Shown: positions 29,544-60,023 of the stretch, piece after piece
Layout: each line of letters opens with the position of its first letter
How positions within the stretch are numbered: the first letter of the stretch is position 1
NCBI GenBank assembly: GCA_964594735.1
Contig: CAZQMS010000001.1
Coordinates: 62,523 to 126,522, forward strand
Source: an uncultured Candidatus Saccharibacteria bacterium
Lineage (GTDB): Bacteria; Patescibacteriota; Minisyncoccia; Phycocordibacterales; UBA2100
Reading direction: 5' to 3'
Length of the DNA stretch: 64,000 bases
Made by a program: the position numbers and the translations under genes
The notes under the pieces: generated by a model
What the model was told of the DNA's origin: nothing
Seen by the model: the letters and a program-made list of their open reading frames with translations, nothing else
Databases searched by the model: none

Positions 29544-29918
29544 TCATGGAATTTGTGGTGAAGTATTTCCCCTGTTTACGTGCATAAGCGCGAGTGCGAG
29601 CGCCGCAGCGGCGATAGAGACATCTCGGAAGAGCACCTCAAAGGTGTAGAAATCGACAATGACTATGGCGAGGAGCATCACAGCAGCAGCAATGGACGGC
29701 CAAAAAATACGCCAACCAGAGAGAATCCAGAGCGCTATCACGACTTCAATCACCCCAAAGCCATGCAAAAGCACTTCGTCGGGTACGTAGCCAAAGGCCC
29801 ACGCGGGAAAGTACCCCAGCCAGGAGTACGGGTTCCAGATAGCGTTGATGGGCGGGTAGAGGAAAGCAAACGCGACTCCGCCTCGCAAAAGAAGATCCGC
29901 CATCCTGTGCGTGTCCAT
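29544..29918 (-). CDS. DoxX-like membrane protein
   Basis: 124 aa; 3-4 TM helices; LLLRGGVAFAFLY... pattern. Confidence 0.5.
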   Translation of the reverse strand: MDTHRMADLLLRGGVAFAFLYPPINAIWNPYSWLGYFPAWAFGYVPDEVLLHGFGVIEVVIALWILSGWRIFWPSIAAAVMLLAIVIVDFYTFEVLFRDVSIAAAALALALMHVNRGNTSPQIP

Positions 29919-29930
29919 GCCAAAAGTATA

Positions 29931-30911
29931 TCAAAGCAGTGCCGACACGCTCGCTGCCTGCGAAGGCGCTGGGACTTCGCCCGTACCACGAGATGCATTG
30001 TATGCGAGGATACCGAGACCCATGACAAGAATGATAATGCCACCCAAGAGTATCTCAGTATGCAGATACTTGTTGCGTGCATGCGCAAGGACAGTAATCG
30101 AGTAGAGTACTGCGACGAGCGCAGTAAATGCAGTAACCATGTACCACACCAGTTGCGATGGCGACGTCGCAAGTACCGCGACGCTGTTCATTGCCGCTGC
30201 ATGAGAGGGCGAAGGTCGCGACTCATCGCCGAGGACTTGTGGCTGCGCGTCGCTTTGAACAATGATAGCGGGCTCTCGCGTCGGTACCTCTAAAATCTTT
30301 TCCTCGACAGGCACGCGAGACTCGCCCGCCCTTGGCTTTGCCGCAAGGAACTGCGCAATAAACGTAACCTCCCTGCCCTGGTACACACCTCTCGCAATTC
30401 CGAACCCGACATGCGTGTATTCGGACTTCAGAATATTTGCGCGGTGCGTTGGTGAATTCATCCAGGCGCGCTCCACATCAACCGATTCCTCAAAATCGAC
30501 CGCAAGATTCTCTCCAGCGTATGTATACGAGTACCCGGCACCATCTAGTATCTGCCGAAATGTCGTCCCATCAGGTGAGACGTGGGCGAAATATCCCCCA
30601 CGAGCCATGTCGTCTGCCTTTGCCTGGGCAGCTCTGGCGAGAGACGGGTCCTCTGTGAGCGTACTGAGCGCGTACGCAGCCCTGTCCGCGTTTGTGAGCG
30701 TGTAGAGAGCCGAGGGCAGCACCGATGCGGCAAATCCTTCACTCAGCATCACCACCTTGAGCTGCACGAGGTACGCGACCTCCACGAGAAGCAGCGCTAT
30801 GGCTATGGCTGCCACCGACTGCTTCGCAAACATTTTCGGACGGAACCCGTTGCCCGCATTCGGTAGGAAGAATTGCTTCGCGCGATGCGTGAGCTTTCTG
30901 CGCTTTGCCAT
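29931..30911 (-). CDS. CAP/SCP (PR-1-like) domain membrane protein
   Basis: N-terminal TM anchor, a CAP domain (…YAGENLAVDFEESVDVERAWMNSPTHRANILKSEYTHVGFGI…) and two C-terminal TM helices. ATG at 30911 is preferred over the track start at 30968. Confidence 0.7.
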   Translation of the reverse strand: MAKRRKLTHRAKQFFLPNAGNGFRPKMFAKQSVAAIAIALLLVEVAYLVQLKVVMLSEGFAASVLPSALYTLTNADRAAYALSTLTEDPSLARAAQAKADDMARGGYFAHVSPDGTTFRQILDGAGYSYTYAGENLAVDFEESVDVERAWMNSPTHRANILKSEYTHVGFGIARGVYQGREVTFIAQFLAAKPRAGESRVPVEEKILEVPTREPAIIVQSDAQPQVLGDESRPSPSHAAAMNSVAVLATSPSQLVWYMVTAFTALVAVLYSITVLAHARNKYLHTEILLGGIIILVMGLGILAYNASRGTGEVPAPSQAASVSALL

Positions 30912-30986
30912 CGGTTTTATGATAGCACCGCGAAGAGACCGTCCCGCTTCAAGCGGGGCCGTCTCCATGCTGACTCAAGTACCTCC

Positions 30987-31712
30987 CTATATTCTGCCGC
31001 GGCGAATGTACAGCCACGCAGCGAGCGCAGCAAGCACAACAAGTCCCAACACAACGTACAGCCAGTTGCTCTCAAGCAAGCCCGCCGCGGCAATCTGTTC
31101 AGTCGCAGTGGCATCGGACTCAGCTATGACGACGGGGGTTGAGGTCGACTCAGTGTCTGTGGGTTCTTCCTCGGCGACAGCCGTGCTTGCGGCCACCTGG
31201 GGTCGTACAGGTGCAGCCTCTTCCTCTGCGACCACGGGCGCAGGTGCTGGCGTAGCAATGGTCACTTGCGAAGCGCCTTGTGTCCCTGCAATTTTGTTAA
31301 CGCTCTGAGCGTCGTACGCTGCAGATCCAGACACAACTGAAATCGTTGCACTTCCGGCAGATTTTGCCCGGAACGTCATCGTACCGAATCGCTTTGTCTC
31401 AGTGAATCCTCCAGTAAAACCCGCTGACTGCGTCACCTTGCCGGAAGCATTATCTATCGAGTTCCCCGGCGGAGTAAGGGGCCAAGACGAGTCAATCGAG
31501 AAGTTCGTGACTTCTAACAGATTCGCTGGGTAGTTTACAATCGCCTTAACTGTGTAGATTTTGACTCCCTCAGGGTTCGCATTCACCGTCACCGAAAATG
31601 TCTGCCCCGGGGTCACACTCACCACTGTGGGAGCGAGTTGTATCGATGCCGCAGCTGCAGGGTGTGCGATGAGCAGAGCCGCGATTGCAAGAATGCTTAT
31701 CAAGGATTTCAT
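30987..31712 (-). CDS. Membrane-anchored cohesin-like domain protein (signal peptide, ~140-aa cohesin-like beta-sandwich, Ala/Glu/Pro-rich linker, C-terminal TM helix and RRGRI tail)
   Basis: Pattern GQTFSVTVNANPEGVKIYTVKAIVNYPANLLEV....GTMTFRAKSAGSATISVVSGSAAYD resembles cohesin domains. C-terminal TM helix WLYVVLGLVVLAALAAWLYI. Confidence 0.45.
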   Translation of the reverse strand: MKSLISILAIAALLIAHPAAAASIQLAPTVVSVTPGQTFSVTVNANPEGVKIYTVKAIVNYPANLLEVTNFSIDSSWPLTPPGNSIDNASGKVTQSAGFTGGFTETKRFGTMTFRAKSAGSATISVVSGSAAYDAQSVNKIAGTQGASQVTIATPAPAPVVAEEEAAPVRPQVAASTAVAEEEPTDTESTSTPVVIAESDATATEQIAAAGLLESNWLYVVLGLVVLAALAAWLYIRRGRI

Positions 31713-31714
31713 AG

Positions 31715-32338
31715 TTAGACGGTCCAGTTGACTACTAAGATGTTGAAGTCGAGGAGGTCGACGACACCGTCGTGATTTAGGTCTGAAGCCAAGCTCGAGC
31801 CTGTGCTACCCCACGCGACCACGAGCGCGTTGAAGTCGAGGAGGTCAACGATTCCGTCCGGCGTACCTGACGGACCAGTGAGGTCTCCGTTGGATTGTGC
31901 TGGTGTTGATGGCGGCAAAATCCCTCCACCACCACCACCGCCACCGCCTCCTCCGCCTCCGCCTCCGCCTCCGCTCGGTGCAGTGACGTTGATTCCATAG
32001 GCGAACGTACCTACCGTAGAAGCAACTGCGCTGTAACAGCCGACTGCGCGTATCGTGGCCGATGCGGAGACGCTAATCGCGCCAGAGTAGAGCGTCCCAG
32101 TAGAGCAAGTCGGAGCCGAGCTATCAATTGTGTAGCGAATAGAATCCGCATTCGGCGCCGAGAGTGTCACATTCTGTGCTTCGCTGTACGTGCCCGGTGC
32201 AGGCGACGCTGACGGCGTCGTCGCGACCGTCGCCTCAATCCCTGTCGAGACACCCGTCGATATCGTACCCGTGACCTCTGAGGCCGCTACAGGGAGCGCT
32301 AACCCGAGAGTGAGAATTACTGCAATGAATTGCTTCAT
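31715..32338 (-). CDS. Secreted protein: signal peptide, CHB_HEX_C-like (Fn3-like) domain, 17-Gly linker, C-terminal dockerin-like double repeat
   Basis: …GTYSEAQNVTLSAPNADSIRYTIDSSAPTCSTGTLYSGAISVSASATIRAVG… (CHB_HEX_C_1-like); G17; PDGIVDLLDFNALVVAW and DLNHDGVVDLLDFNILVVNW (DxNxDGxVDxxDxxxL calcium-loop repeats). Confidence 0.5.
   Translation of the reverse strand: MKQFIAVILTLGLALPVAASEVTGTISTGVSTGIEATVATTPSASPAPGTYSEAQNVTLSAPNADSIRYTIDSSAPTCSTGTLYSGAISVSASATIRAVGCYSAVASTVGTFAYGINVTAPSGGGGGGGGGGGGGGGGGILPPSTPAQSNGDLTGPSGTPDGIVDLLDFNALVVAWGSTGSSLASDLNHDGVVDLLDFNILVVNWTV
31922..31972 (-). repeat. Perfect tract of 17 consecutive glycine codons (GGN)17; simple-sequence repeat encoding the poly-Gly linker
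   Basis: Plus strand reads ccctccaccaccaccaccgccaccgcctcctccgcctccgcctccgcctcc; the antisense frame reads as poly-Pro (track ORF 31803..32000). Confidence 0.9.
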
Positions 32339-32357
32339 AGAATTCGTACGTTACTAG

Positions 32358-35300
32358 CTAGAACGGGTCAGGTCCACTGCCATCGTCCGATGCGACGCCG
32401 TAGCTCGCTGAGTATGAGCCGCCCGTGGTGCCAACCGGCACCTTCATTTCGACCGTGACCGCAATCTGCCTGCCCGCTGTACCACTGTCGAGATCGCTGT
32501 CGAGCTCAATGGCACCAGGGTACGTATCAGCACCTGCAATCGTGACAGCCTCAGTGTCATCCTCCGCTTCGCTCGATTGCGCTGTGTAGTAGCGGATGTT
32601 GTCGGCAGCATCTATGGTGTTGCCACCGCTGATGAAGTCTGCGAATTTCATCGCGAAGTCCGTTTCATCCGTCGGGACGGTGATGTAGAAGATCCAACTC
32701 CAGCCGTTCTCGAACGTATCGTCCGCTGTCGCGAATGTCTTGATTGCACTGATTCCGGTTACTTCGAGTATCGCCGTCGAATCATCGAACGTCGTCTCGA
32801 AAGTATTGTCACCAGAAGTCGTGGTATTGCCCGATGCATCCGTCGAGAGGACTCGGAAGTGGTACGTTGTCGAGCTATCGAGGCCGGTAATCGTTACCGA
32901 GTGGTTCAATACCCCGTCTGTAGCTACCGGAGTATCCGCGAGAACTGTGAGTGTGCCGTAGCCAGATGTTGGACCATATTCAACCTGTGAATCCGCACTC
33001 TCGTCTGTAACCCACTCAATCGTGACGCTCTCGTGATCAATCGACACAGCCTGAATGCCTTGGATAACAGGACCAGTACTATCATTGGAATCCGTTGTGA
33101 ATTCTACCTGGACTGCTTCCGAGGTGTTACCCGCCGCATCCTGACAGCGCACGAAGAAGTCGTACTCGGTGCCGTCACTGAGACCAGTAAGCTCGTACAG
33201 ATGGCCTGTATCCGGCGAGCCACCAGACAACTCCGTCGGCAGCGAGCCGAAGGCGGCATCGGTAGGACCCACGCGGCATACCGCGCTCTCGTTCACCGTT
33301 ATCTCAATATCCGCTTCAGTGTCTGTTACGTTGTTCGCGACGGCTGACACGACAGGCGCTGTCGAGTCGCTCGGTGTCTCGGTAATCGTCACTGAAGTAC
33401 TTTCGTCGCTGAGGTTACCTGAAATATCCATCGATCGCGCCGTGAACTCGTTGGCTCCATTCTGACTCAAGAGCGCGCTGATTGACCAATCAGTCTCTCC
33501 GGCACCAAGAATGTCAGTCCCTGCAGTGAGCCCGTTGTTGTAGAGCTTCACGAAGCGGACACTACCATCGTCTGCGAGCGTGCCGTAGACGTTGTAGACA
33601 TCAGCATCCAGAGAATCCGGCGCAATTCCGAGCGCGGGTACTGCTGGCGCCGTCAGGTCGAGACTCGCTGACTCGTTGTCACCGATATCAACACTGTTGC
33701 TCGCGACGCTTTCGTTTCCATTTGTGTCCTTCGACGTCGCTGTGAACGTGGATGTAGCGTTTTGTGTCAGTGGCACTACGACTGCCCAACTCGTCTGTCC
33801 TGTCGCGATAGTTACATCTCCGACAACATTAGCGCCGTTGAATACAGTAATTGTCCGAGGACCGTTGACCGGAGTATCTGCACCGGCGGTACCTGCAATG
33901 ACGTAGCTGTCGGCGTTGACCGTGGCCTCTACTGTTGTGATGACCGGTGCAGGTGGCGCGACCGTGTCGCTCAGGAGTGTCGTGAAGTTCACGCTCGCCT
34001 GCGAACTTTCGTTCGTTGCAGCGTCGCGGCAGCGGACATACATCGTGTATGCGGTGTTTTCTGTAAGGCCATCAACGTTGACGAGGTGCGTTGTGCTACC
34101 GCTGTCAAACGGATCCATATCGCCGTACGCCTCAGGTGTGTCGCTAATGCGGCAGACCGCGGGCTCGTTGGTTGTCACCGTAATGTCGGCTGAATCCGAG
34201 TCCACGTTGCTTGCGAGTATCGAGAGAATGAGCGGTGCGACAGTATCAATCTCTGTGGTGAAGCAGCGTACCTCAGTATCCTGCGTCGTTGTGTTGCCCG
34301 CCGCGTCGCGCACCGATCCCGAGAGAATCGTAAGGCAGTATGTCGTCCCGCCCGCGAGGCCTGCGTACGGCACCTCAAGGATGCGTGAGCTGTCGTTGCC
34401 GCCTTGCACTGCTATTGAGCCGGTCGTCTGGTAGTCAGTGCCGTCTGCCTGATCCTCCACGAAGACGCCATTCTGGTCGAGAAGCGTAATCATGTCTGAG
34501 CCCGCACCGTTGAACTGACGGAAGTGAGCAAAGAGAGTGCCGTCGCTGGTTGAGACTCCGGTCGAGAGGTGCGGCGGGTTGATGAATTCCAATACTGGTG
34601 CGCGTGTGTCCCAGATGAGGTTCATCGTGTCCGTGGCACTGTTCCCGGCTTCGTCTTCAGCGAAAAGCTGCAGCTCGTACACTCCATCCTGGTTTGTAGA
34701 GATGAGCGCCTGGATTGTCGCGGTTGTCGTGAACGAGACGGTGCCAGGACCGGTCACTTTAGACCACGTCACAAAGTCGAGTCCGCTACCGGCGTCGCTC
34801 GCCGAAGCAGTCGTCTGTGTGAAGGCTGCATTGATTTCATTGTCATCGCCGGCGCTCACTGAGGGATTAGTCCTGTCGTAGGTGATGTTGGTCCCCCCCG
34901 TAATCGCGGTGACTTGTGTACCGACGTTATGCGTCGGCGTAGCAACATCTTCAAAGTCGATGGCGAAAGCAATCTGCCCTTCAGGATCGTCGCCGTCCAT
35001 CACGAGGGTCGCCTGCCAGTTGTTGCTACCAAGGTCGCTGACTGTTGCCGATTCGCCCGCAATAGTGACCACAGGATCAACAGCGAGTTGTTCTGAGCCA
35101 GTGAACAGCAGTGTTACCGTGTTCCCCTCCTTGGCCCAGAGCGCGCCGTCCTTGGCATTGTTCGAAGAAATCGTGACCGATGTGAGTACCGGTGCGACAC
35201 CGTCAACAGCTTCGACAGTGACGGGCGTGACAGCAGTATTCGGAACGGCTGCGAGGTCATCGAGCTGGTCGACTTGTGTGTACGTCACGTCTGGAGTCGC

Positions 35301-37784
35301 ATCAGTGGGCATTGTTGCGACGGTAAGTGTAATGACTCCTGGAGCCGATTCTGTCGCGGCAGAGACGGCGAAGCCCGTTACCGTGAACTCGTTGCCGCTA
35401 CCATTGACCGTAGCCCCATTGAGGTCTTCGGAGAAGTGCGCATTGATTGTCGTCACCGATGTCGTGATAGCCGAAATAAGTACCGGCTTTGCAACGTCAG
35501 TTGAAGCAAACGAGAAGTTGGCAATTGTATTCCCCGCGAGATCGAGTGCACCTCCCTGCGTGTACGCTACTGTTTTCGATTCGGTGCCGGCGACCTGGGT
35601 TCCCATCGTGAGGACGATGGTGTTGTCATCCGGTGTACCGCCTGTTCCTATTGCAGTAGGCACAACGCCTCCAACTGTGAAATCAGCAGCCGAAAAAGTG
35701 GAGTCATCCACAGGATCATCAAAGACGATGGTCACCGTGTCGATGCTGCCGTTGAGGTCAACGTCGGCAGTCGTGATACCCGCCGTGTTGGTGAAGGCCG
35801 GCACAGTATCAACCTCAAAGTCGTTAATCTCGAGTACAGCACTAGCATTGCCCGCGAAGTCCGTAACGGTGATATCGCAGTCTGTGTACGTTGCATCACC
35901 AAGCGGGCCCGTGAACGTAATTACGTTGTTGCCATCTAGCGCGGCACTAGGCGTCCACGCCCCGCAGGAGCCAACGATGTTGATAGTCCCAGTGTTGCCA
36001 GGAAGCCACGCTGCCTTGTCGACGCTAAATGTGTAGCCCGGTGTCGTGTCATTTGTCGGAGTCGGGACGAGCGTGACTGCCGCGAGATTCGGCGCAGTCG
36101 TGTCGCGCACGAACGTCGCTTCATCGAAAGTGCTGTTGCCGGCCGTGTCGAAGACCGTAAGTCGGATGACGTAAGTATCATCGGCATTTGCATCTACTGT
36201 CGTATCCTCTGCGGCTGCAGTACCAAACGTAACGGTTCCGCTACCGCTCTCTTTAGTCCACGCATAGCTTGCGATTCCTGAGCCGCCGCCGTCAGAAACT
36301 GTTGCATCCTGGTTGATCAGCACGTTATCTTCCTGGTCTACGCCCGCATTTACGGCAGGAGCTTCTTGGTCGACATCGAGATCGCTCGCACTCACGGGCG
36401 CACCGGTCGTCGAGTTCTCAGCAATGTCAGTGATAATCGCAGTAAAGGTGATGTTGTCGCCGTCGCTGAAGCCAGCGAGACCTTCCAGCTCCGCGGCGAT
36501 AAACGAAAGTGTCTTATTGCCGTTGATGTCACCCAGCAGAATCGTATAGGCGCTCCCAAGATTCTCCATCGCCCCGTCTGCCTCTGCCTGTACTTGAATC
36601 GTTCCTCCGACGAGTGAGGCATCGTTATCAAGGGAAATGGTCACGTCGACACCAGTATTCGTATTGTTCCACCATCCCGCAACCACATTGCCTCCGGTCG
36701 TGGTCACCGCTCCTACCTGAAATGCGATAGGTGCCGTGGTATCGATGACGATGTTGCTCGTAGCAGCGAGGTTTGATGTCGGGACGAGTGTCGAATCATT
36801 CCCGGCGATGTCTTCGACTACACCTGAGTTGGGGACAATCGATGTGACGGTCAAATCTGCTGAATTGTGTCCGCCAGCGACAGTGTAAGTGCACGTTCCC
36901 ACGTTCGTATTCGCCAATCCCCCTATCACACAGCTACCACCAGAATCCAGATTCACTGTGAGGAAATCTGTTGACGAGACGTTTTCAGAGAATGTAAGAG
37001 TGACGTTGATAAGGTCCCCAGCGTTGTATGCGCCATCAACCGTCGTTGAGGTGACCGCGACGGTGGGAGCGATAGTATCAACACTGATGGTCTGCGACTG
37101 TATGGCTTCGACGTTGTGAGCACCGAGCGCATCCACAGCCTCGTCTTGAGAGCGCCATTCAAGGAGATTCGACCCCTCGAGCGCCGCAAATGGAGCCGCA
37201 TACGGCGTCCACGCACCGCCATTCCACCGATATTCAGTGCTACCGGCGAGACAACCGCTGTTCCCGGTGGCACTGTCGTCGCACGTGAGCGTGATGGTCG
37301 GAACAGTTATATACCACCCGTTTAGGCCGTTGGGAGCCGCAGGTGCAAGTGAGATAGACGTAACGGGCGCTGTGTTATCAACGAGAAAGTCGGTGATGCT
37401 CGCTCCATCGAGGCCGGTACCGGGGTCGAACACGCGAATCCTGTATGTCGCTCCATCGGGAAGCACTCCGACACCGCTCATCGTCGTGTCCCATGAGTAC
37501 GTACCGTCTGCAGACGAAATCGAATTCACGAGATTAGAGTACGAACCACCACTGTTCGTTGAAAGCAAAATAGAAATATTGTTCGGCGTGCCGTTGTCTG
37601 TCGCTGTCCACGTGATGTCCTGTAGGCCGCGCCACTCTTCACCGCCTGTGGGGTCCGTGAGCGTGAGGCTTGTAATCAACGCCTCAGCGTGAGAAACAAA
37701 AAAACCGCTAACGAGTGCGGCGCCGAGAACGACAGCAAGTGTCGCGCGAACTTTTGAGGAAAACAGGTTTTGTAAAGAATTCAT
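32358..37784 (-). CDS. Giant secreted surface protein (~1809 aa) with signal peptide and many tandem Ig-like/Fn3 domains (including purple-acid-phosphatase-N-type Fn3)
   Basis: ATG at 37784 gives the signal peptide MNSLQNLFSSKVRATLAVVLGAALVSGFFVSHAEA. Repeated D(T/S)TAP(V/I) domain boundaries; Fn3 modules (…VEYGPTSGYGTLTV…TYHFRVLSTDASGN…). No TM or LPXTG motif found. The track extends to 37844. Confidence 0.85.
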   Translation of the reverse strand: MNSLQNLFSSKVRATLAVVLGAALVSGFFVSHAEALITSLTLTDPTGGEEWRGLQDITWTATDNGTPNNISILLSTNSGGSYSNLVNSISSADGTYSWDTTMSGVGVLPDGATYRIRVFDPGTGLDGASITDFLVDNTAPVTSISLAPAAPNGLNGWYITVPTITLTCDDSATGNSGCLAGSTEYRWNGGAWTPYAAPFAALEGSNLLEWRSQDEAVDALGAHNVEAIQSQTISVDTIAPTVAVTSTTVDGAYNAGDLINVTLTFSENVSSTDFLTVNLDSGGSCVIGGLANTNVGTCTYTVAGGHNSADLTVTSIVPNSGVVEDIAGNDSTLVPTSNLAATSNIVIDTTAPIAFQVGAVTTTGGNVVAGWWNNTNTGVDVTISLDNDASLVGGTIQVQAEADGAMENLGSAYTILLGDINGNKTLSFIAAELEGLAGFSDGDNITFTAIITDIAENSTTGAPVSASDLDVDQEAPAVNAGVDQEDNVLINQDATVSDGGGSGIASYAWTKESGSGTVTFGTAAAEDTTVDANADDTYVIRLTVFDTAGNSTFDEATFVRDTTAPNLAAVTLVPTPTNDTTPGYTFSVDKAAWLPGNTGTINIVGSCGAWTPSAALDGNNVITFTGPLGDATYTDCDITVTDFAGNASAVLEINDFEVDTVPAFTNTAGITTADVDLNGSIDTVTIVFDDPVDDSTFSAADFTVGGVVPTAIGTGGTPDDNTIVLTMGTQVAGTESKTVAYTQGGALDLAGNTIANFSFASTDVAKPVLISAITTSVTTINAHFSEDLNGATVNGSGNEFTVTGFAVSAATESAPGVITLTVATMPTDATPDVTYTQVDQLDDLAAVPNTAVTPVTVEAVDGVAPVLTSVTISSNNAKDGALWAKEGNTVTLLFTGSEQLAVDPVVTIAGESATVSDLGSNNWQATLVMDGDDPEGQIAFAIDFEDVATPTHNVGTQVTAITGGTNITYDRTNPSVSAGDDNEINAAFTQTTASASDAGSGLDFVTWSKVTGPGTVSFTTTATIQALISTNQDGVYELQLFAEDEAGNSATDTMNLIWDTRAPVLEFINPPHLSTGVSTSDGTLFAHFRQFNGAGSDMITLLDQNGVFVEDQADGTDYQTTGSIAVQGGNDSSRILEVPYAGLAGGTTYCLTILSGSVRDAAGNTTTQDTEVRCFTTEIDTVAPLILSILASNVDSDSADITVTTNEPAVCRISDTPEAYGDMDPFDSGSTTHLVNVDGLTENTAYTMYVRCRDAATNESSQASVNFTTLLSDTVAPPAPVITTVEATVNADSYVIAGTAGADTPVNGPRTITVFNGANVVGDVTIATGQTSWAVVVPLTQNATSTFTATSKDTNGNESVASNSVDIGDNESASLDLTAPAVPALGIAPDSLDADVYNVYGTLADDGSVRFVKLYNNGLTAGTDILGAGETDWSISALLSQNGANEFTARSMDISGNLSDESTSVTITETPSDSTAPVVSAVANNVTDTEADIEITVNESAVCRVGPTDAAFGSLPTELSGGSPDTGHLYELTGLSDGTEYDFFVRCQDAAGNTSEAVQVEFTTDSNDSTGPVIQGIQAVSIDHESVTIEWVTDESADSQVEYGPTSGYGTLTVLADTPVATDGVLNHSVTITGLDSSTTYHFRVLSTDASGNTTTSGDNTFETTFDDSTAILEVTGISAIKTFATADDTFENGWSWIFYITVPTDETDFAMKFADFISGGNTIDAADNIRYYTAQSSEAEDDTEAVTIAGADTYPGAIELDSDLDSGTAGRQIAVTVEMKVPVGTTGGSYSASYGVASDDGSGPDPF

Positions 37785-37911
37785 ATAAAAATCGAACAAT
37801 GATAAACGAGTAATGCCGCGCACGCGGATACCGCAACCGTACACTTTTCATGAATCCCGTCTAGTTGACAGTCCAACGCCAACTGTGTTCTCTCATGAAT
37901 TTTTCGTGTGC

Positions 37912-39147
37912 TTACGCTGACTTACCCTGTGCCAAACGCCGGAGAGCCACGATGTATGCAGCTTCGCGGAGTGTTAGAGAATCTTTTTTTGCCTCTGTAA
38001 AGACCGCGCGAGCTGCCGACCGCATCTTGTCCTCGAGCTTTCTAAAGACGTCGTCCTTCCCCCATTTCTCGTCGTGTACGTTTTGATACCACTCAAAGTA
38101 CGACACCGCGACACCGCCCGCGTTGGCCAAGATGTCTGGAATCACAGTGACACCGCGCTCGCGCAATATTTCGTCTGCTTCCGGCGTTGTCGGGCCGTTG
38201 GCCATTTCTAAAATCGTTTTAGCGCGAATGTTTTGCGCATTTGCACTCGTTATCGAGTTCTCGAGAGCAGCGGGAACTGCGATATCGACATCGAGCGTCA
38301 GGACTTCGGATGCATCCAGTGCCTCCGTGCCACCAAAACCCGCTAGTGACCCGGTCGCCTTTTTGTGCGCTTCAAGTGAGTCGATATTCGATATGCCATT
38401 TTCGCTGCGAATCGCGCTGCGCGAGTCCGATATCGCGAGGATGCGTGCACCGGAAGCGAGCAAAAACCGGGCCAAATAGCTCCCCACGTTGCCAAACCCT
38501 TGAATCGCCACCCGCTTCCCCTCCAAGGGGACACCTTGGAGTGCGAGGATTTCAGAGAGTACGTAGCTCCCGCCGAGGCCTGTGGCCTCTGTGCGGCCCT
38601 CAGAGCCTCCCAGGGCGACGGGCTTGCCCGTCACAACGCCAGGCGCCGCCTTACCGACTACTTTTTCATATTCTTCCCGAATCCAAGCCATAATTTGGCC
38701 ATTGGTATTCACATCGGGCGCGGGGACATCGATTTCAGGCCCTATGTACGGCGCTAGCTGCCGGGCGAACTCCCGCGTGAGGCGCTCGAGCTCCCCCACG
38801 GAGAGCGACTTCGGGTCTACCTTCACGCCGCCCTTGCCGCCCCCGAAAGGCACATCGACGAGCGCATTCTTCATCGTCATCCAAAACGAAAGCGCCTTCA
38901 CCTCGTCCATGTCCACATGCGGATGGTAGCGGAGGCCTCCCTTGTAGGGCCCGAGGATGTTGTTGTGCTGGACGCGGTACCCTTCGAAGACGACGCGTGG
39001 ACCCTCGTCCATTTGTAGCGCCACGGGCACCTCGACGATGCGGTCGGGCGCTGTGAGACGCTGGTAGAGCGAGTCGCTGACGCCAGAGCGCGCCCGCGCT
39101 TTTTCGAGCTGCGCGAGTGCAGATTGCCAGGGATTTGCGGCAGACAT
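37912..39147 (-). CDS. gdhA: NAD(P)-dependent glutamate dehydrogenase
   Basis: GGLRYHPHVDMDEVKALSFWMTMKNALVDVPFGGGKGG signature; Rossmann GFGNVGS. ATG at 39147 is preceded by TAGGAT at 7-nt spacing. The track starts at a GTG at 39153. Confidence 0.92.
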   Translation of the reverse strand: MSAANPWQSALAQLEKARARSGVSDSLYQRLTAPDRIVEVPVALQMDEGPRVVFEGYRVQHNNILGPYKGGLRYHPHVDMDEVKALSFWMTMKNALVDVPFGGGKGGVKVDPKSLSVGELERLTREFARQLAPYIGPEIDVPAPDVNTNGQIMAWIREEYEKVVGKAAPGVVTGKPVALGGSEGRTEATGLGGSYVLSEILALQGVPLEGKRVAIQGFGNVGSYLARFLLASGARILAISDSRSAIRSENGISNIDSLEAHKKATGSLAGFGGTEALDASEVLTLDVDIAVPAALENSITSANAQNIRAKTILEMANGPTTPEADEILRERGVTVIPDILANAGGVAVSYFEWYQNVHDEKWGKDDVFRKLEDKMRSAARAVFTEAKKDSLTLREAAYIVALRRLAQGKSA

Positions 39148-39166
39148 GGGCACTATCCTAGCACCC

Positions 39167-39748
39167 TTATGGGAGGCGGACGGTGTCGAGCAGCTGCTCG
39201 AAATCTTCGATGATGTCGTCCTCTCGCGTTATCCATGCGACAGAGAAATGATACGCCCTGCCACCTTGCAGAAGAACGACGTTGTTGGTCGAGTAGAGAC
39301 CATCAGACTGGTACGAGAGCGCCGGCATACCATTCACCGTCATGCTCGAGAGCGTAGTAGTCGCAGCGAGTGCGAAATTTGAGACGCTCGACGTCCGTAT
39401 CCAGCTTTCAGTCGACGTAGCCGTGGTCGAAGAGATGCTTACATTTATAGATGGCGGCCCTTCACCATTGAGCGGTGCTTGTGCAAGCGCCTCTGTGTCC
39501 GAAAGCGTAACGACATGGATAGACGTGCCCTGGAAAGTCGCATCATCTTCTCGCAGTGTGTACGAAGCCGGGTACTGGAAGGAAATGCCGTAGGTCGTGC
39601 TCGTAAACGTGCGCGCCTGCGTACCTGGGGTGCTTGTAGAAACCGTGGTCGTCCCATTGTCCGGCAAGCCGCCAAATGCACCTGGCATGAAGTAGTAGAC
39701 GCCGAGCAGCGCAAGGATGAGTAGCGCGAGTATCACGAAATATCGCAT
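39167..39748 (-). CDS. Hypothetical membrane-anchored/secreted protein (193 aa, N-terminal TM, Ser/Thr-rich)
   Basis: TACAAT lies 8 nt upstream of the ATG. No family recognised. Confidence 0.5.
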   Translation of the reverse strand: MRYFVILALLILALLGVYYFMPGAFGGLPDNGTTTVSTSTPGTQARTFTSTTYGISFQYPASYTLREDDATFQGTSIHVVTLSDTEALAQAPLNGEGPPSINVSISSTTATSTESWIRTSSVSNFALAATTTLSSMTVNGMPALSYQSDGLYSTNNVVLLQGGRAYHFSVAWITREDDIIEDFEQLLDTVRLP

Positions 39749-39791: not shown

Positions 39792-40502
39792 CTAGATCTC
39801 CTGCTTCGCTTCCCTCAGCGTCGGGTCTTTCACGACACTCACAATACGTCCGTCGTCGAGATGGACGAGCCGCTCTGCCATCTGCGCGTACTCAGGTTCG
39901 TGCGTCACCATGATGATGGTCTGGCCTTTTTTGTGCAGCTCGAGAAATATATCCATTACGGTGTGCGACGAGTGGTTGTCGAGGTTGGCCGTCGGCTCGT
40001 CGGCGAACAGAATTTTGGGCTCGTGGCCGATGGCACGCGCGATAGATACGCGCTGCTGCTCGCCGCCCGACATCTGACTCGGGAGGTTGTGCAGACGGTG
40101 TCCGAGCCCCACGCGCTCGAGCGCCTTTGCAGCCTTCTTCGATGCATCGCTCTTGGTAAGGCCCTGCATCATGAGGGGAAGCGCCACGTTTTCGAGCGCG
40201 GTGAGCTCGGGGAGGAGTGCGTAGTCTTGAAACACGTAGCCAAACTTCGAAAGGCGGAAGTTCATCTTCTCATCGGCACTCATCGTGTGTGTTTTCTGCC
40301 CGTCGATAACAATCTCCCCGCTCGTCGGTTCATCGAGGAGGCTTATCTGGTAGAGAAAAGTGCTCTTGCCGGCTCCCGAGCGCCCCATGATTGCGATGAA
40401 CTCTCCATTCTTCGCCTCAAAATCGATACCCTTGAGGACTTCGGTAATCATATCCCCGTTCTTAAACGACCTTCGCAATTCTTTTGTGCTGATGATGTTC
40501 AT
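39792..40502 (-). CDS. ABC transporter ATP-binding protein (MacB/LolD/FtsE-like)
   Basis: Walker A GRSGAGKST, LSGGEQQRVSIARA signature, Walker B ILFADEPT. ATG at 40502 is 3 nt from the permease stop. Confidence 0.9.
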   Translation of the reverse strand: MNIISTKELRRSFKNGDMITEVLKGIDFEAKNGEFIAIMGRSGAGKSTFLYQISLLDEPTSGEIVIDGQKTHTMSADEKMNFRLSKFGYVFQDYALLPELTALENVALPLMMQGLTKSDASKKAAKALERVGLGHRLHNLPSQMSGGEQQRVSIARAIGHEPKILFADEPTANLDNHSSHTVMDIFLELHKKGQTIIMVTHEPEYAQMAERLVHLDDGRIVSVVKDPTLREAKQEI

Positions 40503-40504
40503 AG

Positions 40505-41758
40505 TTAGTTTCTGCCGAGGATTGAATCGAGTGTATTTTTTCGGACTATCATCCACGCCGGGACGTATCCTGCGATGACGGTAGAGACCACCAGAAGCCC
40601 GACACGGAAGAGCGTCTCGCCAAGGTTCGCAACCAAGATGCCGTCGCTAAACGGGAAGTCGATCGGATTGGCGGCAAAGGTGGGTACGAGGAGGCCGTAC
40701 ACGAGCGCAAGGCCTATGCCCGAGCCGATGACCGCATAAAAGATGGATTGAAAAACGTACGAAATCTCAATCGCTTTACCGTGGATGCCTATGCCCTTGA
40801 GAATGCCGATGAATTTACGGCGCGTGAGTGCGTTGATGAATATGACAATAAATATCGTAATTGATGAGACCACGAGACCGAAGCTCGAGAAGCCCGCTCC
40901 AAGCATATTGAATGTCTGGATCATGTCTTTGAGGAATTTCGGCTGACCGTCTTCAAATGTCTGCACCTTCGCGTACTGGTCCACGCCCCGCAGCTTGATC
41001 GCATCGCGCACCTTTGCAGGATCTATTCCGGGGGCAAGTTTTATCGAGATTTCGTCGACGTTGCCATCTGCGCGCCCTATCATGCTGCGAAACTGCGTCT
41101 GGTCCATAAAGACGCGGAGCGCTATTTCATCCACCTTGCTCTTGAGAATTCCTTTGACAGTGACTTCGCGCGTCACATCACCGACTTTCATACGGATCTT
41201 TGTGCCTATTCCGACATCCTCCAGGGTAGAAAAACCCGGTGTTTCCACGGGAAAATACTGTTTGAGGAGGTAGTTGCCGACAACGACCTTGTCGTAATCT
41301 CCAGGCACCAGAAATTCACCCTCAATAAGGTCGCCGCCGATACCGGTAACAGCGTGCTCTGCCACCGGGTCGATACCGACGACTTGCGCGCCGACAATGT
41401 TTGCTTTGTCGGATTCCTTTCGCGTCTTGTAGTTGGCCTCGAGTGTGCCGGATTCCCGATACCGTGCCGTGTAGGTATCCACCCCCTCGAGAAGCTCGAT
41501 GATGGCAATGATGTTTTGGCTGTTCTCGATGTAGGTCTTGTCATCGAGCGTCGAGACGATAACATCGCTCGTGTATTTTGTTCTCACCGCTTCGACAGCC
41601 CCCTGGATGAGACCCACTAGAATGCCCGAGACCACAACGAGGTTGAGGAATGTGAGCACCATTATGAAAATGATGAGGCTGGTCGTCCAGAGAGACGCAC
41701 GGCGAATCTGACGAATTGCCAGATAGAAACCTATCCGGATATTGAGCGGAGAAAACAT
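40505..41758 (-). CDS. ABC transporter permease, FtsX/MacB-like (4 TM helices with a large extracytoplasmic domain)
   Basis: 417 aa; N-terminal TM, ~200-aa periplasmic-type domain, C-terminal FtsX 3-TM bundle. Confidence 0.85.
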   Translation of the reverse strand: MFSPLNIRIGFYLAIRQIRRASLWTTSLIIFIMVLTFLNLVVVSGILVGLIQGAVEAVRTKYTSDVIVSTLDDKTYIENSQNIIAIIELLEGVDTYTARYRESGTLEANYKTRKESDKANIVGAQVVGIDPVAEHAVTGIGGDLIEGEFLVPGDYDKVVVGNYLLKQYFPVETPGFSTLEDVGIGTKIRMKVGDVTREVTVKGILKSKVDEIALRVFMDQTQFRSMIGRADGNVDEISIKLAPGIDPAKVRDAIKLRGVDQYAKVQTFEDGQPKFLKDMIQTFNMLGAGFSSFGLVVSSITIFIVIFINALTRRKFIGILKGIGIHGKAIEISYVFQSIFYAVIGSGIGLALVYGLLVPTFAANPIDFPFSDGILVANLGETLFRVGLLVVSTVIAGYVPAWMIVRKNTLDSILGRN

Positions 41759-41764
41759 ATCCGC

Positions 41765-43336
41765 CTACCTCAGCTCGGAGACAATGACCACGTCCCCCTC
41801 TCCCAATCCGGTGAGAACCTCAATGTTGCCGAGACTCGATACCGCGCCCGTCGAAACTTCGCGCTCTACCACTATCTTACCGTCGGCTTCGAGCACTTTC
41901 ACGTACTTCTTACCGTTGCGCTCGGTCACGAGTCCTTGCGGGATGCTCACGACACCGCTTTTCTCCTCGGTCGTGACAACAATGTTGGCCGTCATACCCG
42001 AGCGGATGCGCACATCCTCGACATCAAACTGCAAGATTGCCCGGTAGGTCGGCACACCATCGCGAATCGTCTCCGCCGGGTCGATAGATACCACTTTCGC
42101 TGCGAAAGGAACGTCACTTCCGTACGCATCGAGCGTCACGACCGCAGTGTTACCCACTTGTACGTACGCGATGTTGACCTCTGGGACATAGCTCTCTATC
42201 TGGAATGCAGACGCTGTGTTTACTGTAATCTCTGGTGTGTTGGGCGATACGATCTTGCCCGCCTTCGCATCGACTTTTGTCACGACACCCGAAAAAGGCG
42301 CCGCAATTACGGTCTTTGAGAGCATGGCGCGCGCATTTGCGACATCAGCTTCGGCGGCTTTTACCTGTGCGGCCTGTGCAGCAATGTCAGCGGGCACCGT
42401 ACCAGCCTTTTTGAGTGCGAGCGTATTTTGCGACGATGCAAGAGCTGCTGCGGCGCTCTTTTGAGCTGTGACGGCAGATGTCAGCGCCGAAGACGCCGTG
42501 CTCACGTTGGTGCGCGCTGTCGCAATCGACGCGATGTATGCATCGAGCGTGGTCTGCGTGATATTGGTAAGCGCTGTGCTACCGAGCACGCGACTCACGG
42601 TGCTCAAAAGCGCAGTGACCTGACTCATGTGCTGTTGCGCGCGAAATACATGACCCGAGAGGTCGGTCTCGCCGACGAGCGTCGCATTGTCGGCCGCCCA
42701 TGCAGCAAGCACGGCTTCTACCACGGTAACGCCGGCGTTGGCATCGACGACCGCCTGCGTATCGGATGACACGATATTTATCTGGGGGTTCGTCCGCGGA
42801 TTGCTGACAAACTGGTAGAGCTTGTTGCGTATTGCATCGTCGGTCTTGATGTACGCATCGCGGAGCGCATCGGCAAGCGCCATGTTGGCTTGCATCAGGG
42901 CTGCAGTGTCTCGCTCTACATTGCCCTCTGCGACGAGGATTTCCTCCGGCCGCGTACCCTGCTGGAGTGAGAGGAGCTTTGCTCTTTGCACCTCAAGCGC
43001 CGCTTCACGCTGCAGGAGCTGTGCGTACAAATCCCCGCTGTCGATTTCTGCGAGCACCCTTCCTGCAATGACGCGGTCACCCACTTTCACATTGACCCGT
43101 GCGATGCGACCGCTTTGGGTAAAACCGAGGTCCACCTCTTGAGCGGGCACTACGGTGCCCGAAACAGACACCTGCTGAACGAATGCATCGGCTTTCACTG
43201 TGAGCGTCTCAAACTCCGGTCCACTGTCGGAAAAGATGATGTAGGCACCACCTCCTACGATGACAATCGCAGCGACCGCGATACCCGCTTTTGTTTTCAG
43301 AAATGCAATTATTTTTGACATAGAGAAATGAGACAT
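41765..43336 (-). CDS. HlyD/MacA-family membrane-fusion (periplasmic adaptor) protein
   Basis: N-terminal TM, biotinyl/lipoyl-like hairpin (VKVGDRVIAGRVLAEID), a long coiled-coil and C-terminal beta-barrel domains. TAGAGT lies 7 nt upstream of the ATG. Confidence 0.8.
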   Translation of the reverse strand: MSHFSMSKIIAFLKTKAGIAVAAIVIVGGGAYIIFSDSGPEFETLTVKADAFVQQVSVSGTVVPAQEVDLGFTQSGRIARVNVKVGDRVIAGRVLAEIDSGDLYAQLLQREAALEVQRAKLLSLQQGTRPEEILVAEGNVERDTAALMQANMALADALRDAYIKTDDAIRNKLYQFVSNPRTNPQINIVSSDTQAVVDANAGVTVVEAVLAAWAADNATLVGETDLSGHVFRAQQHMSQVTALLSTVSRVLGSTALTNITQTTLDAYIASIATARTNVSTASSALTSAVTAQKSAAAALASSQNTLALKKAGTVPADIAAQAAQVKAAEADVANARAMLSKTVIAAPFSGVVTKVDAKAGKIVSPNTPEITVNTASAFQIESYVPEVNIAYVQVGNTAVVTLDAYGSDVPFAAKVVSIDPAETIRDGVPTYRAILQFDVEDVRIRSGMTANIVVTTEEKSGVVSIPQGLVTERNGKKYVKVLEADGKIVVEREVSTGAVSSLGNIEVLTGLGEGDVVIVSELR

Positions 43337-59718: not shown

Positions 59719-59774
59719 ATTGTACCAACAGACGAAGCCAGCCGAACGGCCGTCTGTTGAAAGATTCGGACCTG

Positions 59775-60023
59775 TTACCGATGTGGGCAGCCGGCCCAGC
59801 AGCACGGGCGGCGCATGCCTCCACTGAGCTTGGACAGCGCTTTCTTGATGCGGATGCCGCGCGTCTCCGCCTTTTTGCCGGATGTCACCCAGCAAATCCA
59901 CTCACTCCTCGCAAGCGGCGTTATGTCCTCCCATATGGCTCGTGCCTTGGGAGCCGCCGCGATTGCGGCGCGTAAATCCGCGGGGAGCTTGTGTACTGAG
60001 CCGCCTGCAAGCGTAGTAGTCAT
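59775..60023 (-). CDS. YdeI/OmpD-associated (OmdA) family protein (short)
   Basis: …LPADLRAAIAAAPKARAIWEDITPLARSEWICWVTSGKKAETRGIRIKKALSKLSGG… matches the OmdA domain. Confidence 0.55.
   Translation of the reverse strand: MTTTLAGGSVHKLPADLRAAIAAAPKARAIWEDITPLARSEWICWVTSGKKAETRGIRIKKALSKLSGGMRRPCCWAGCPHR

Follow-up and report, generated by a model that had tools for sequence, protein, structure and literature searches.

A putative cohesin-dockerin cassette for anchoring a giant surface protein in Patescibacteria

The locus described here raises the question of how a very large secreted protein that carries no recognizable anchor could be held at the bacterial surface. The window, a 64-kb stretch of DNA from a small-genome member of the Patescibacteria (CPR) of the Paceibacteria/Minisyncoccia type, contains on its minus strand four closely packed genes, which encode in order the giant protein, a small adaptor, a cohesin protein, and a CAP-domain protein. 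An earlier note on this DNA had described four co-oriented genes separated by 2-19 nt, and the open reading frames bear this out, with gaps of 19, 2, and 18 nt. The span that it gave, 30987-37784, does include the giant, adaptor, and cohesin genes, but the CAP gene (29931..30968) falls outside it. Scans for promoters and terminators at the locus yielded signals no higher than background.

The giant (32358..37784, minus strand) comprises 1808 amino acids when counted from its ATG, a length shared by the representative P0114, and the reading frame itself reaches further, to a GTG at 37844. The protein is acidic and threonine-rich. Its signal peptide is accompanied by a Kre9/KNH-like Ig domain, by numerous Ig-, PKD-, and fn3-like modules, and by a conserved C-terminal domain, here termed gterm. 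Its Pfam matches are confined to PKD, fn3, Pur_ac_phosph_N, and Big_13, with no enzyme domain among them. The N-terminal signal peptide is the only segment of its kind in a hydropathy scan; this and a motif scan reveal neither a transmembrane (TM) helix or hydrophobic segment at the C-terminus nor an LPXTG motif near the end, and the giant is thus not an LPXTG sortase-anchored protein. Together with Pfam, the same scans also detect no recognized wall-binding module. These results agree with the earlier description of a secreted Ig/Fn3-repeat protein of approximately 1809 residues without an anchor motif.

The gterm domain (residues 1668-1800; 32385..32783, minus strand) is a conserved terminal β-sandwich of approximately 135 residues, which has no relative by sequence in Pfam or the PDB. 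It is common to all of the giants, whose middle domains differ, and was detected in 728 protein clusters (clustering at 50% identity). In 108 cases it forms the very C-terminal end of the protein, and in 36 it directly follows the signal peptide. Gterm is the proposed docking module for the adaptor, and hence a candidate answer to the question of the giant's attachment.

The 207-residue adaptor (31715..32338, minus strand) consists of a signal peptide, a module termed adN, a poly-glycine linker, and a dockerin. The adN module (residues 20-120; 31979..32281) combines a conserved mature N-terminus, SEVTGTISTGVSTGIEATV, with a β-sandwich of the CHB_HEX_C_1/Fn3_assoc type, and alignment of the adaptors shows two invariant cysteines within it, C78 and C101. 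Residues 46-114 match both CHB_HEX_C_1 (PF13290; 53.4 bits against a gathering threshold (GA) of 22) and Fn3_assoc (PF13287; 36.5 bits against 23), and these models are matched by 34 of 36 adaptor homologues. The linker (residues 123-139; 31922..31972) contains exactly 17 glycines, and such a run, of 4-17 residues, is kept throughout the adaptor family. The secreted adaptor with a CHB_HEX_C-like domain and Gly17 linker was therefore correctly recognized from the outset.

The dockerin follows at residues ~150-207 (31718..31891, minus strand). By definition, a dockerin possesses two tandem segments of approximately 22 residues, each with an EF-hand-like calcium loop (Asp or Asn at positions 1, 3, 5, 9, and 12) and a helix. 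Two DxNxDGxVDxxDxxxL repeats had been reported in the earlier note. The second, DLNHDGVVDLLDFNILVVNW, is indeed canonical: it contains the sole full motif in the adaptor (residues 186-201), and its calcium loop, DLNHDGVVDLLD (residues 186-197), is canonical as well. The first repeat, GDLTGPSGTPDGIVDLLDFNALVVAWG, however, is only partial (DGIVDLLDFNAL, residues 161-172), with its calcium loop interrupted by a five-residue insertion. The window adaptor has this insertion (GDLTGPSGTPDGIVDLLD) in common with P0008 and P0020, while in most homologues in the alignment both loops are canonical. Because the insertion breaks the first loop, the window protein scores below the gathering threshold of Dockerin_1 (PF00404; 17.1 bits against 22.9); it also lies under the cut-off of the NCBIfam model dockerin_GC (27.7 bits against 29). 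In the Pfam search proposed in the earlier note, the window protein itself thus stays under the threshold, while all 36 aligned homologues match Dockerin_1 at E<=0.01, with a best E-value of 2.2e-9. Furthermore, when the family profile is compared with the PDB, the solved structures that it matches are dockerins only (2jnk, 5lxv_B, 2y3n_B, and 1daq), its best sequence match being the dockerin of C. perfringens NagH.

The third gene (30987..31712, minus strand) encodes a 241-residue protein comprising a signal peptide, a cohesin (residues 23-150), a P/A/E/T-rich linker (residues 151-208), and a TM helix with a basic tail (residues 209-241), the helix itself spanning residues 209-239. Residues 25-149 cover positions 2-138 of the 139 in the Pfam Cohesin model (PF00963), at 35.1 bits against a gathering threshold of 24.1. 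The AF2 model is all-β (pLDDT 90.4) and adopts the flattened β-sandwich, or jelly-roll, of approximately 140 residues that characterizes cohesins; in a Foldseek search of the PDB its best 27 matches are all cohesins (TM 0.6-0.71, E down to 2.4e-7), including cohesins solved bound to dockerins. Both the TM-anchored, cohesin-like β-sandwich that had been proposed and the profile and structure-prediction checks suggested for it are therefore upheld. Despite the TM helix and basic tail, there is no LPXTG motif in this protein, and TIGR01167 scores 14.9 against a cut-off of 15.9.

The order giant, adaptor, cohesin-TM recurs between unrelated flanking genes across Patescibacteria metagenomes, where it was found in 45 further loci; the question of whether homologous neighborhoods recur, posed in the earlier note, is thereby answered. 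A facultative neighbor, which may be counted as the fourth gene of this cassette, is the CAP gene: it is immediately downstream in the window, L015, L018, L027, L029, and L053, and missing elsewhere. It had been listed as the fourth member, and it does encode a membrane-bound CAP/SCP (YkwD-like) protein in the window (345 residues, 3 TM segments, minus strand; CAP PF00188, 66 bits against a threshold of 21.1), but it is not constant in other cassettes. Since its scores lie under the NCBIfam cut-offs for YkwD (102.9 against 171) and DalA (52 against 200), the protein can be assigned to the superfamily only.

The putative pairing of cohesin with dockerin is reflected in the distribution of the genes. 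A cohesin-TM gene follows the adaptor in 28 of 28 clusters in which the adaptor bears a dockerin, and in none of the 6 in which it does not (Fisher p=7.4e-7). Moreover, the two modules co-vary. A mirror-tree test gives r=0.79 for dockerin and cohesin, and when the effect of adN is removed in a partial Mantel test, r=0.60 (p=2e-4). This is the highest value among all domain pairs and higher than that between dockerin and adN, even though the latter two share one polypeptide. In the loci without a dockerin, the C-terminal module of the adaptor is of another kind: PG_binding_1 in six adaptors (L018, L028, L047, L053, L054, and P0072), three SLH repeats in P0083, or, in L019, a Ser/Thr linker and TM helix of the adaptor's own. 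As adN and the poly-glycine run are constant across all of these variants, the exchange of the C-terminal module suggests that the adaptor is a carrier of exchangeable envelope anchors.

Together, these observations lead to a model in which the three genes probably, though by no means certainly, form a cell-surface anchoring cassette, with the TM-cohesin holding the dockerin adaptor and the adaptor holding the giant. All of the products would be exported via Sec signal peptides. The helix of the 241-residue protein would reside in the membrane and raise its type-I-like cohesin on a Pro/Ala/Glu-rich stalk of ~60 residues, and this cohesin would receive the C-terminal dockerin of the adaptor. 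This binding is proposed from knowledge of the two families and from comparative genomics; the joint would be expected to depend on calcium, and the near-symmetric dockerin repeats suggest a dual binding mode. At the other end of the adaptor, adN, set apart from the dockerin by a flexible poly-glycine tether, would bind gterm, so that the Ig/Fn3 array of the giant would extend away from the cell, probably as an adhesin or surface fiber, which may serve in attachment to a host cell. The plug and socket known from the cellulosome appears here to keep a probable adhesin at the cell surface rather than to degrade plant fiber. The non-cellulosomal "plug and socket" for surface proteins envisaged in the earlier note is supported by the Pfam and Foldseek matches of the cohesin, the family-wide dockerin matches, the gene contingency, and the co-variation.

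The putative contact between gterm and adN is suggested by gene adjacency, and an alternative exists for this part of the model. A genuine cohesin-dockerin pair might tether only the small CHB_HEX_C protein, for example as a glycan- or host-binding lectin, while the giant is attached separately or self-assembles in an S-layer-like manner, with gterm binding the wall or itself; the neighboring giant and adaptor genes would then simply be co-expressed. Adjacency is the one line of evidence for the gterm-adN link, as the partial correlation between these domains (0.32-0.36) does not exceed that of other residual pairs in the partial Mantel analysis. In addition, the best fold matches of gterm are generic sandwiches of glycosidases and CBM-like domains, and CHB_HEX_C domains are known in carbohydrate-active enzymes. 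Conversely, the adN gene directly follows the gterm gene in 43 of 43 cases that have downstream sequence, across lineages with unrelated flanks and irrespective of whether gterm lies at the N- or the C-terminal end of the giant, and a custom HMM places adN beside gterm genes in every lineage. Gterm and adN with its poly-glycine run are also the only invariant parts of a system in which the middle of the giant and the anchor of the adaptor vary, and the giant has no recognized wall-binding module of its own. Separate attachment of the giant is therefore conceivable but rather unlikely.

A variant of the anchoring model, which we regard as improbable, concerns the nature of the same contact. Here, gterm would resemble a pilin in having an incomplete sandwich. 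The segment SEVTGTISTGVSTGIEATV would enter this sandwich and act as its donor strand, so that a non-covalent but very stable joint, or else a short fiber, would result. The segment does rank among the most conserved parts of the adaptor in the alignment. Yet gterm is predicted to fold alone (pLDDT 93), there are no chaperone or usher genes nearby in the window or the related loci, and the segment displays a period-4 hydrophobic/Gly pattern rather than the period-2 pattern of a β-strand.

It is more doubtful still that the adaptor merely carries generic EF-hand-like calcium loops and the third gene a generic Ig-like membrane protein, with no specific plug and socket between them. The sub-threshold Pfam and NCBIfam scores of the window dockerin would fit this explanation, as would the matches of EF-hand and FG-GAP models to some adaptor homologues and the lack of any genuine match when the cohesin profile is searched against PDB sequences. 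However, generic modules would account neither for the 28/28 versus 0/6 contingency nor for a dockerin-cohesin co-variation that exceeds that of every other domain pair, and the fold of the third protein matches cohesins solved in dockerin complexes, just as the adaptor profile matches dockerins alone among solved structures. Furthermore, the "VDKYDF" dockerins of L012 and L016 are both paired with a divergent cohesin subtype, although the third genes of these loci match the cohesin profile only weakly (hhalign probability 80% and 19%, respectively). Finally, a cellulosome is defined by carbohydrate-active enzymes that bear dockerins and by a scaffoldin with several cohesins, usually also with a CBM. 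Although a cohesin, a dockerin, and a CHB_HEX_C domain are all present, along with a partial NCBIfam match to CbhB, an exoglucanase, at 54 bits where the cut-off is 1950, a minimal cellulosome-like complex degrading polysaccharide is extremely improbable, as the earlier note also held, since the CbhB match spans fn3-type linker modules only, GH, CE, PL, and CBM domains are absent from the cassette proteins here and in related loci (with no GH or CBM among the scanned proteins of the window), and there is a single dockerin motif in the 64 kb and a single cohesin per anchor protein by Pfam.

Returning to the anchoring model, a broader reading is tentative, and perhaps somewhat less probable than its negation: that the cassette represents a widespread, undescribed mounting system of Patescibacteria, in which gterm and adN/poly-Gly are combined with swappable anchors, host-attachment giants, and orthogonal paralogues. 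If so, the mounted giants would be host-attachment organelles of episymbiotic Patescibacteria, paralogous cassettes would maintain orthogonal cohesin-dockerin specificities, and gterm, which has 728 clusters and lacks a Pfam entry, would represent a new type of terminal docking domain read by a dedicated adaptor module.

Among known systems, a close parallel is that of Ruminococcus flavefaciens, in which the type III cohesin of the sortase-anchored ScaE binds the X-dockerin of CttA or ScaB (4iu2/4iu3, 2zf9); both structures occur among the Foldseek matches of the cohesin model. As in ScaE-CttA, a single cell-bound cohesin is the socket and the dockerin plug holds a non-enzymatic adhesin. Unlike ScaE, the window cohesin lacks an LPXTG motif and is anchored through a TM helix at its C-terminus. 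The dockerin has no X-module and belongs to a small adaptor, whereas the displayed protein itself carries a different, unannotated docking domain; the organism, moreover, is a non-cellulolytic Patescibacterium. Envelope-fixed cohesins that bind dockerin partners are likewise found in Clostridium thermocellum, in OlpA and OlpC (type I with SLH) and in SdbA and OlpB (type II), and the top structural matches include the cohesins of OlpA and OlpC (3ul4, 4dh2). In that organism the partners are enzymes or the CipA scaffoldin and SLH attaches to wall polymers, whereas the window cassette relies on a TM helix and includes neither enzymes nor a multi-cohesin scaffoldin; SLH is used directly by the adaptor variant P0083.

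Cohesin-dockerin pairs outside cellulose degradation occur in Archaeoglobus fulgidus (2xdh) and Clostridium perfringens (2jh2, 2vo8, 2ozn/2jnk), whose cohesins are also among the fold matches. Those pairs join enzymes or toxins, or have no known function, and none is known to form a conserved giant/adaptor/TM-cohesin operon or to contain gterm or adN. A survey of non-cellulosomal cohesin and dockerin modules is said to have been given by Peer et al. 2009. The family NF041540, "GC-type dockerin domain-anchored protein," similarly embodies the idea that bacteria which do not degrade cellulose can anchor surface proteins by a C-terminal dockerin; the adaptor, at 27.7 against 29, is not a member, and its domain partners and taxon differ.

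Within the Patescibacteria, the Saccharibacterium Southlakia epibionticum possesses a dockerin-domain protein, SEML1_0315, that is reported to be essential for epibiotic growth, which indicates that dockerins matter to the lifestyle of this group; a cohesin partner, adaptor, or giant protein is not described for it (Wang et al. 2023, PMC10633639). By its description, SEML1_0315 resembles the adaptor in being a dockerin-bearing envelope protein, although it belongs to a different class, the Saccharibacteria.

The cassette in the window comprises the genes for the giant repeat protein (32358..37784 (-), 1808 aa from the ATG that agrees with homologues), the adaptor (31715..32338 (-), 207 aa), the cohesin protein (30987..31712 (-), 241 aa) and the CAP protein (29931..30968 (-), 345 aa). 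The earlier note had described four co-oriented genes with gaps of 2-19 nt; the gaps are indeed 19, 2 and 18 nt, and it is because of this spacing that the genes are called an operon. A promoter and terminator scan of the cassette returned nothing above the shuffled background. The 127-nt spacer 5' of the giant's ATG (37785-37911 (-)) is without a clear Shine-Dalgarno sequence or an above-background promoter match. An in-frame GTG at 37844 gives 20 extra residues, and one assembly calls a 1821-aa product; homologues favour the ATG. At the other end, 12 nt past the CAP gene and on the same strand, a gene for a 124-aa DoxX-like membrane protein (29544-29918 (-); 20.5 bits, below GA) may share the cassette transcript. 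Upstream on the same strand, and separated from the giant gene by gdh (37912-39153), lie a secreted 193-aa PsbP_2-like protein (39167-39748 (-); below GA) and a MacAB-like exporter set of ABC ATPase, FtsX-type permease and HlyD-family protein (39792-43336 (-)), for which no tie to the cassette was seen in other loci.

By hydropathy, the signal peptide is the sole hydrophobic segment of both the giant and the adaptor, the cohesin protein combines a signal peptide with the expected C-terminal TM helix (residues 209-239), and the CAP protein (Pfam CAP, 66 bits) has three TM segments, in keeping with its description as membrane-anchored. The giant is acidic and Thr-rich, with Pfam matches limited to PKD, fn3, Pur_ac_phosph_N and Big-type domains. 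Hydropathy and a motif scan revealed neither a C-terminal TM helix nor LPXTG, as the portrayal of a secreted repeat protein without an anchor motif had it, and sortase anchoring was therefore rejected.

Gene order was compared across contigs on which the cohesin protein or the adaptor has a homologue. A giant of 1452-2105 aa is followed by an adaptor of about 200 aa and then by a protein of about 245 aa with a signal peptide, beta-domain, linker and TM helix; this order, whose recurrence in related genomes the earlier note had proposed to check, is kept in lineages with unrelated flanking genes, while the middle domains of the giants vary (beta-helix/NosD, Big_5, PKD, fn3, HYR). The taxonomic range is known only through scattered source names of homologues, which read Candidatus Paceibacterota, Minisyncoccia and Minisyncoccota and assign the window to Patescibacteria. 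The CAP gene, previously counted as a cassette member, is present in the window cluster but missing from most related loci. In at least six lineages, the gene directly 3' of the cassette encodes a CAP/YkwD-like protein that has one TM segment at the N-terminal end and two at the C-terminal end (29931-30968 (-) in the window; L015:12592-13689, L018:8847-9887, L027:9793-10842, L029:6580-7368 and L053:1307-1486 among homologous loci). This recurrent optional fourth gene trails dockerin-type and PG_binding-type cassettes alike.

A terminal domain of about 135 aa, gterm, is common to all giants. With one representative taken per cluster at 50% identity, its profile matches 728 proteins at E<=1e-3, of which 356 remain at E<=1e-30. 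No Pfam match was obtained even at E<=10, nor any PDB sequence relative, and the model, a beta-sandwich with a pLDDT of 93, retrieved nothing below 1e-3 with Foldseek; gterm is therefore regarded as an unclassified module, and a large domain family without annotation is now flagged. Among the top 148 representatives it occupies the extreme C-terminus in 108, the position right behind the signal peptide in 36 and an internal position in 4. Its occurrence at either end of the giant fits a non-covalent docking module rather than a sortase-type signal, and the cassette possibly contains a new docking domain.

HMMs were built for the dockerin, for two cohesin subtypes, for gterm and for adN (residues 20-120 of the adaptor), and were run over every retrieved locus, among them 45 metagenome loci that the gterm profile alone had brought in; these are partly redundant, and adaptors were clustered at 90% identity. 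Wherever the sequence continues for 300 nt or more past the gterm gene, an adN gene comes immediately next (43/43). Dockerins are present in 30 of the 41 adaptor clusters and absent from 11; adaptors of the second kind keep a signal peptide, the conserved N-terminal segment, CHB_HEX_C and poly-Gly. In place of the dockerin they carry PG_binding_1 (loci L018, L028, L047, L053 and L054, and protein P0072), three SLH repeats (protein P0083, 95 bits), other repeats (L014, L015) or a Ser/Thr-rich linker with its own TM helix (L019). In this last case the adaptor is in effect fused with the stalk and helix contributed in the window by the cohesin protein. All identifiable replacements are envelope-anchoring modules, and these natural swaps back an anchoring role for the adaptor.

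The Gly17 linker reported earlier is exactly 17 residues long and is encoded by mixed GGN codons (GGA, GGC, GGT; 31922-31972 (-)). Runs of 4-17 glycines occupy the same adaptor position family-wide, independent of the anchor behind, and may change in length by slippage; they may serve as a tether or as a cleavage site. The mature N-terminus, SEVTGTISTGVSTGIEATV (adaptor aa 20-38; 32224-32281 (-)), is highly conserved, with a period-4 pattern (V/L/I-x-T/S-G repeated) untypical of strand or helix; this segment is slightly longer in adaptors that partner giants with an N-terminal gterm.

Because the anchors swap while gterm on the giant and adN plus poly-Gly on the adaptor stay constant, a mechanism can be proposed in which the adaptor's C-terminal module would fix it to the envelope, in the window via dockerin, cohesin and TM helix, and its N-terminal module would grip the giant by gterm. 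On balance, adN appears to bind gterm, such that the giant would be displayed via the adaptor. Natural gterm-adN fusions (Rosetta stones) number 0 among the 148 representatives, and the mirror-tree residual correlation of about 0.3 for this pair is no higher than for other pairs and does not stand out from residual phylogenetic signal. That the adaptor instead acts independently of the giant is unlikely, though it keeps some weight beside the unbroken gterm-adN adjacency; a donor-strand variant of the grip is more doubtful still.

For the adaptor's other end, the cohesin claim of the earlier note held under both HMM and structural comparison. The protein scores 35.1 bits against Pfam Cohesin (GA 24.1), with nearly the whole model covered. 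A PDB sequence search with its profile gave nothing but spurious matches of the signal peptide to Fab light chains, and a fold search was therefore needed: the model of the domain (all-beta, pLDDT 90.4, seven sequences as input) has cohesins as its best 27 Foldseek PDB matches, most of them type I and many determined in complex with a dockerin, and non-cellulosomal cohesins of A. fulgidus and C. perfringens are among the matches. In the adaptor, the suspected CHB_HEX_C-like domain scores 53.4 bits (CHB_HEX_C_1), alongside Fn3_assoc. The two predicted dockerin motifs stood in part, as the second repeat contains the full DxNxDGxVDxxDxxxL but in the first an insertion of 5 residues interrupts the calcium loop. 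Because of this insertion the window protein reaches just 17.1 bits against Dockerin_1 (GA 22.9); with NCBIfam dockerin_GC it comes near the cut-off of 29, at 27.7. Full-length homologues number about 75, and in the adaptor alignment Dockerin_1 is found in 36/36 (best E 2.2e-9) and CHB_HEX_C_1 in 34/36. The family profile matches solved dockerins, best the non-cellulosomal NagH dockerin of C. perfringens. The repeats are nearly symmetric, with VDLLDF in both, which suggests a dual binding mode as in type I dockerins.

A cohesin-TM gene comes next after the adaptor in 28/28 dockerin-bearing clusters with downstream sequence, whereas it does so in 0/6 clusters without a dockerin (Fisher p=7.4e-7). 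Across 25 non-redundant cassettes, the dockerin-cohesin distance correlation (r=0.79) is the highest of all domain pairs and persists when adN is controlled (partial Mantel r=0.60, p=2e-4); it exceeds that of dockerin and adN, although the latter two share a polypeptide. L012 and L016, the two lineages with VDKYDF in both dockerin repeats, each pair with a divergent cohesin subtype. The dockerin very probably binds the neighbouring cohesin. That the repeats are generic calcium loops without a binding partner is very improbable beside this co-variation.

One locus (L048:25-13005) contains two full cassettes in tandem, each with giant, dockerin adaptor and cohesin-TM genes in that order; their cohesin domains are 32% and their dockerins 52% identical, and the linker and TM tails of the cohesin proteins hardly differ. 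Diversification to orthogonal plug-socket pairs in one genome could be the cause, or partial gene conversion. Another patescibacterial locus (L020:7248-11826) has a different layout and encodes, in order, a 303-aa Big_6 and Dockerin_1 protein (42 bits), a 412-aa Cohesin protein (30 bits) and an 839-aa protein whose N-terminal domain is cohesin-like and which also has CarboxypepD_reg domains; cohesin-dockerin pairs therefore seem to be in wider use on Patescibacteria surfaces.

A minimal cellulosome is hardly credible and was rejected, since the CbhB match (NCBIfam) covers fn3-like linker modules only and no glycoside hydrolase or CBM (of which the earlier note had seen none in the cluster), nor a second dockerin, was found among the scanned proteins of the 64-kb window. 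The other genes are housekeeping (carAB, uvrAB, purF, gdh, MacAB-like exporter, Obg, P-type ATPase), and an Rfam scan of the window gave nothing. A 703-aa protein with Laminin_G_3 (68.7 bits) and a C-terminal PG_binding_1 (57790-59901 (-)) is a further surface protein of the organism; its anchor module is the one that replaces the dockerin in some adaptors.

A large share of bacterial diversity belongs to the Patescibacteria (CPR), whose usual way of life is attachment to other cells, and to our knowledge almost nothing is known of how they display giant surface proteins. The cassette offers a testable model in which a giant, through its terminal domain, a dockerin adaptor and a cohesin in the membrane, would be held on the cell. 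It is speculative that the giant is a host adhesin, an idea prompted by the Paceibacteria that are attached to, and parasitize, methanogens (PMC10936435) and by a Saccharibacterium dockerin protein that is essential to epibiotic growth (PMC10633639).

Literature searches found no paper describing the giant-adaptor-cohesin cassette. Cohesin-dockerin use beyond cellulosomes is known from A. fulgidus and C. perfringens, and was reportedly surveyed by Peer and colleagues in 2009. With the cassette, this range of uses would widen to a form that is anchored by a membrane helix, has no enzymes and works via an adaptor, and the many diverged natural pairs are candidate orthogonal connectors. Functionally, the nearest system is ScaE of R. 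flavefaciens, which holds the adhesin CttA, followed by the Olp anchoring cohesins of C. thermocellum. Unlike these known systems, the cassette has a single cohesin anchored by a TM helix, places the dockerin not on the displayed protein but on a separate small, dedicated adaptor, and combines the gterm/adN pair with swappable anchors.
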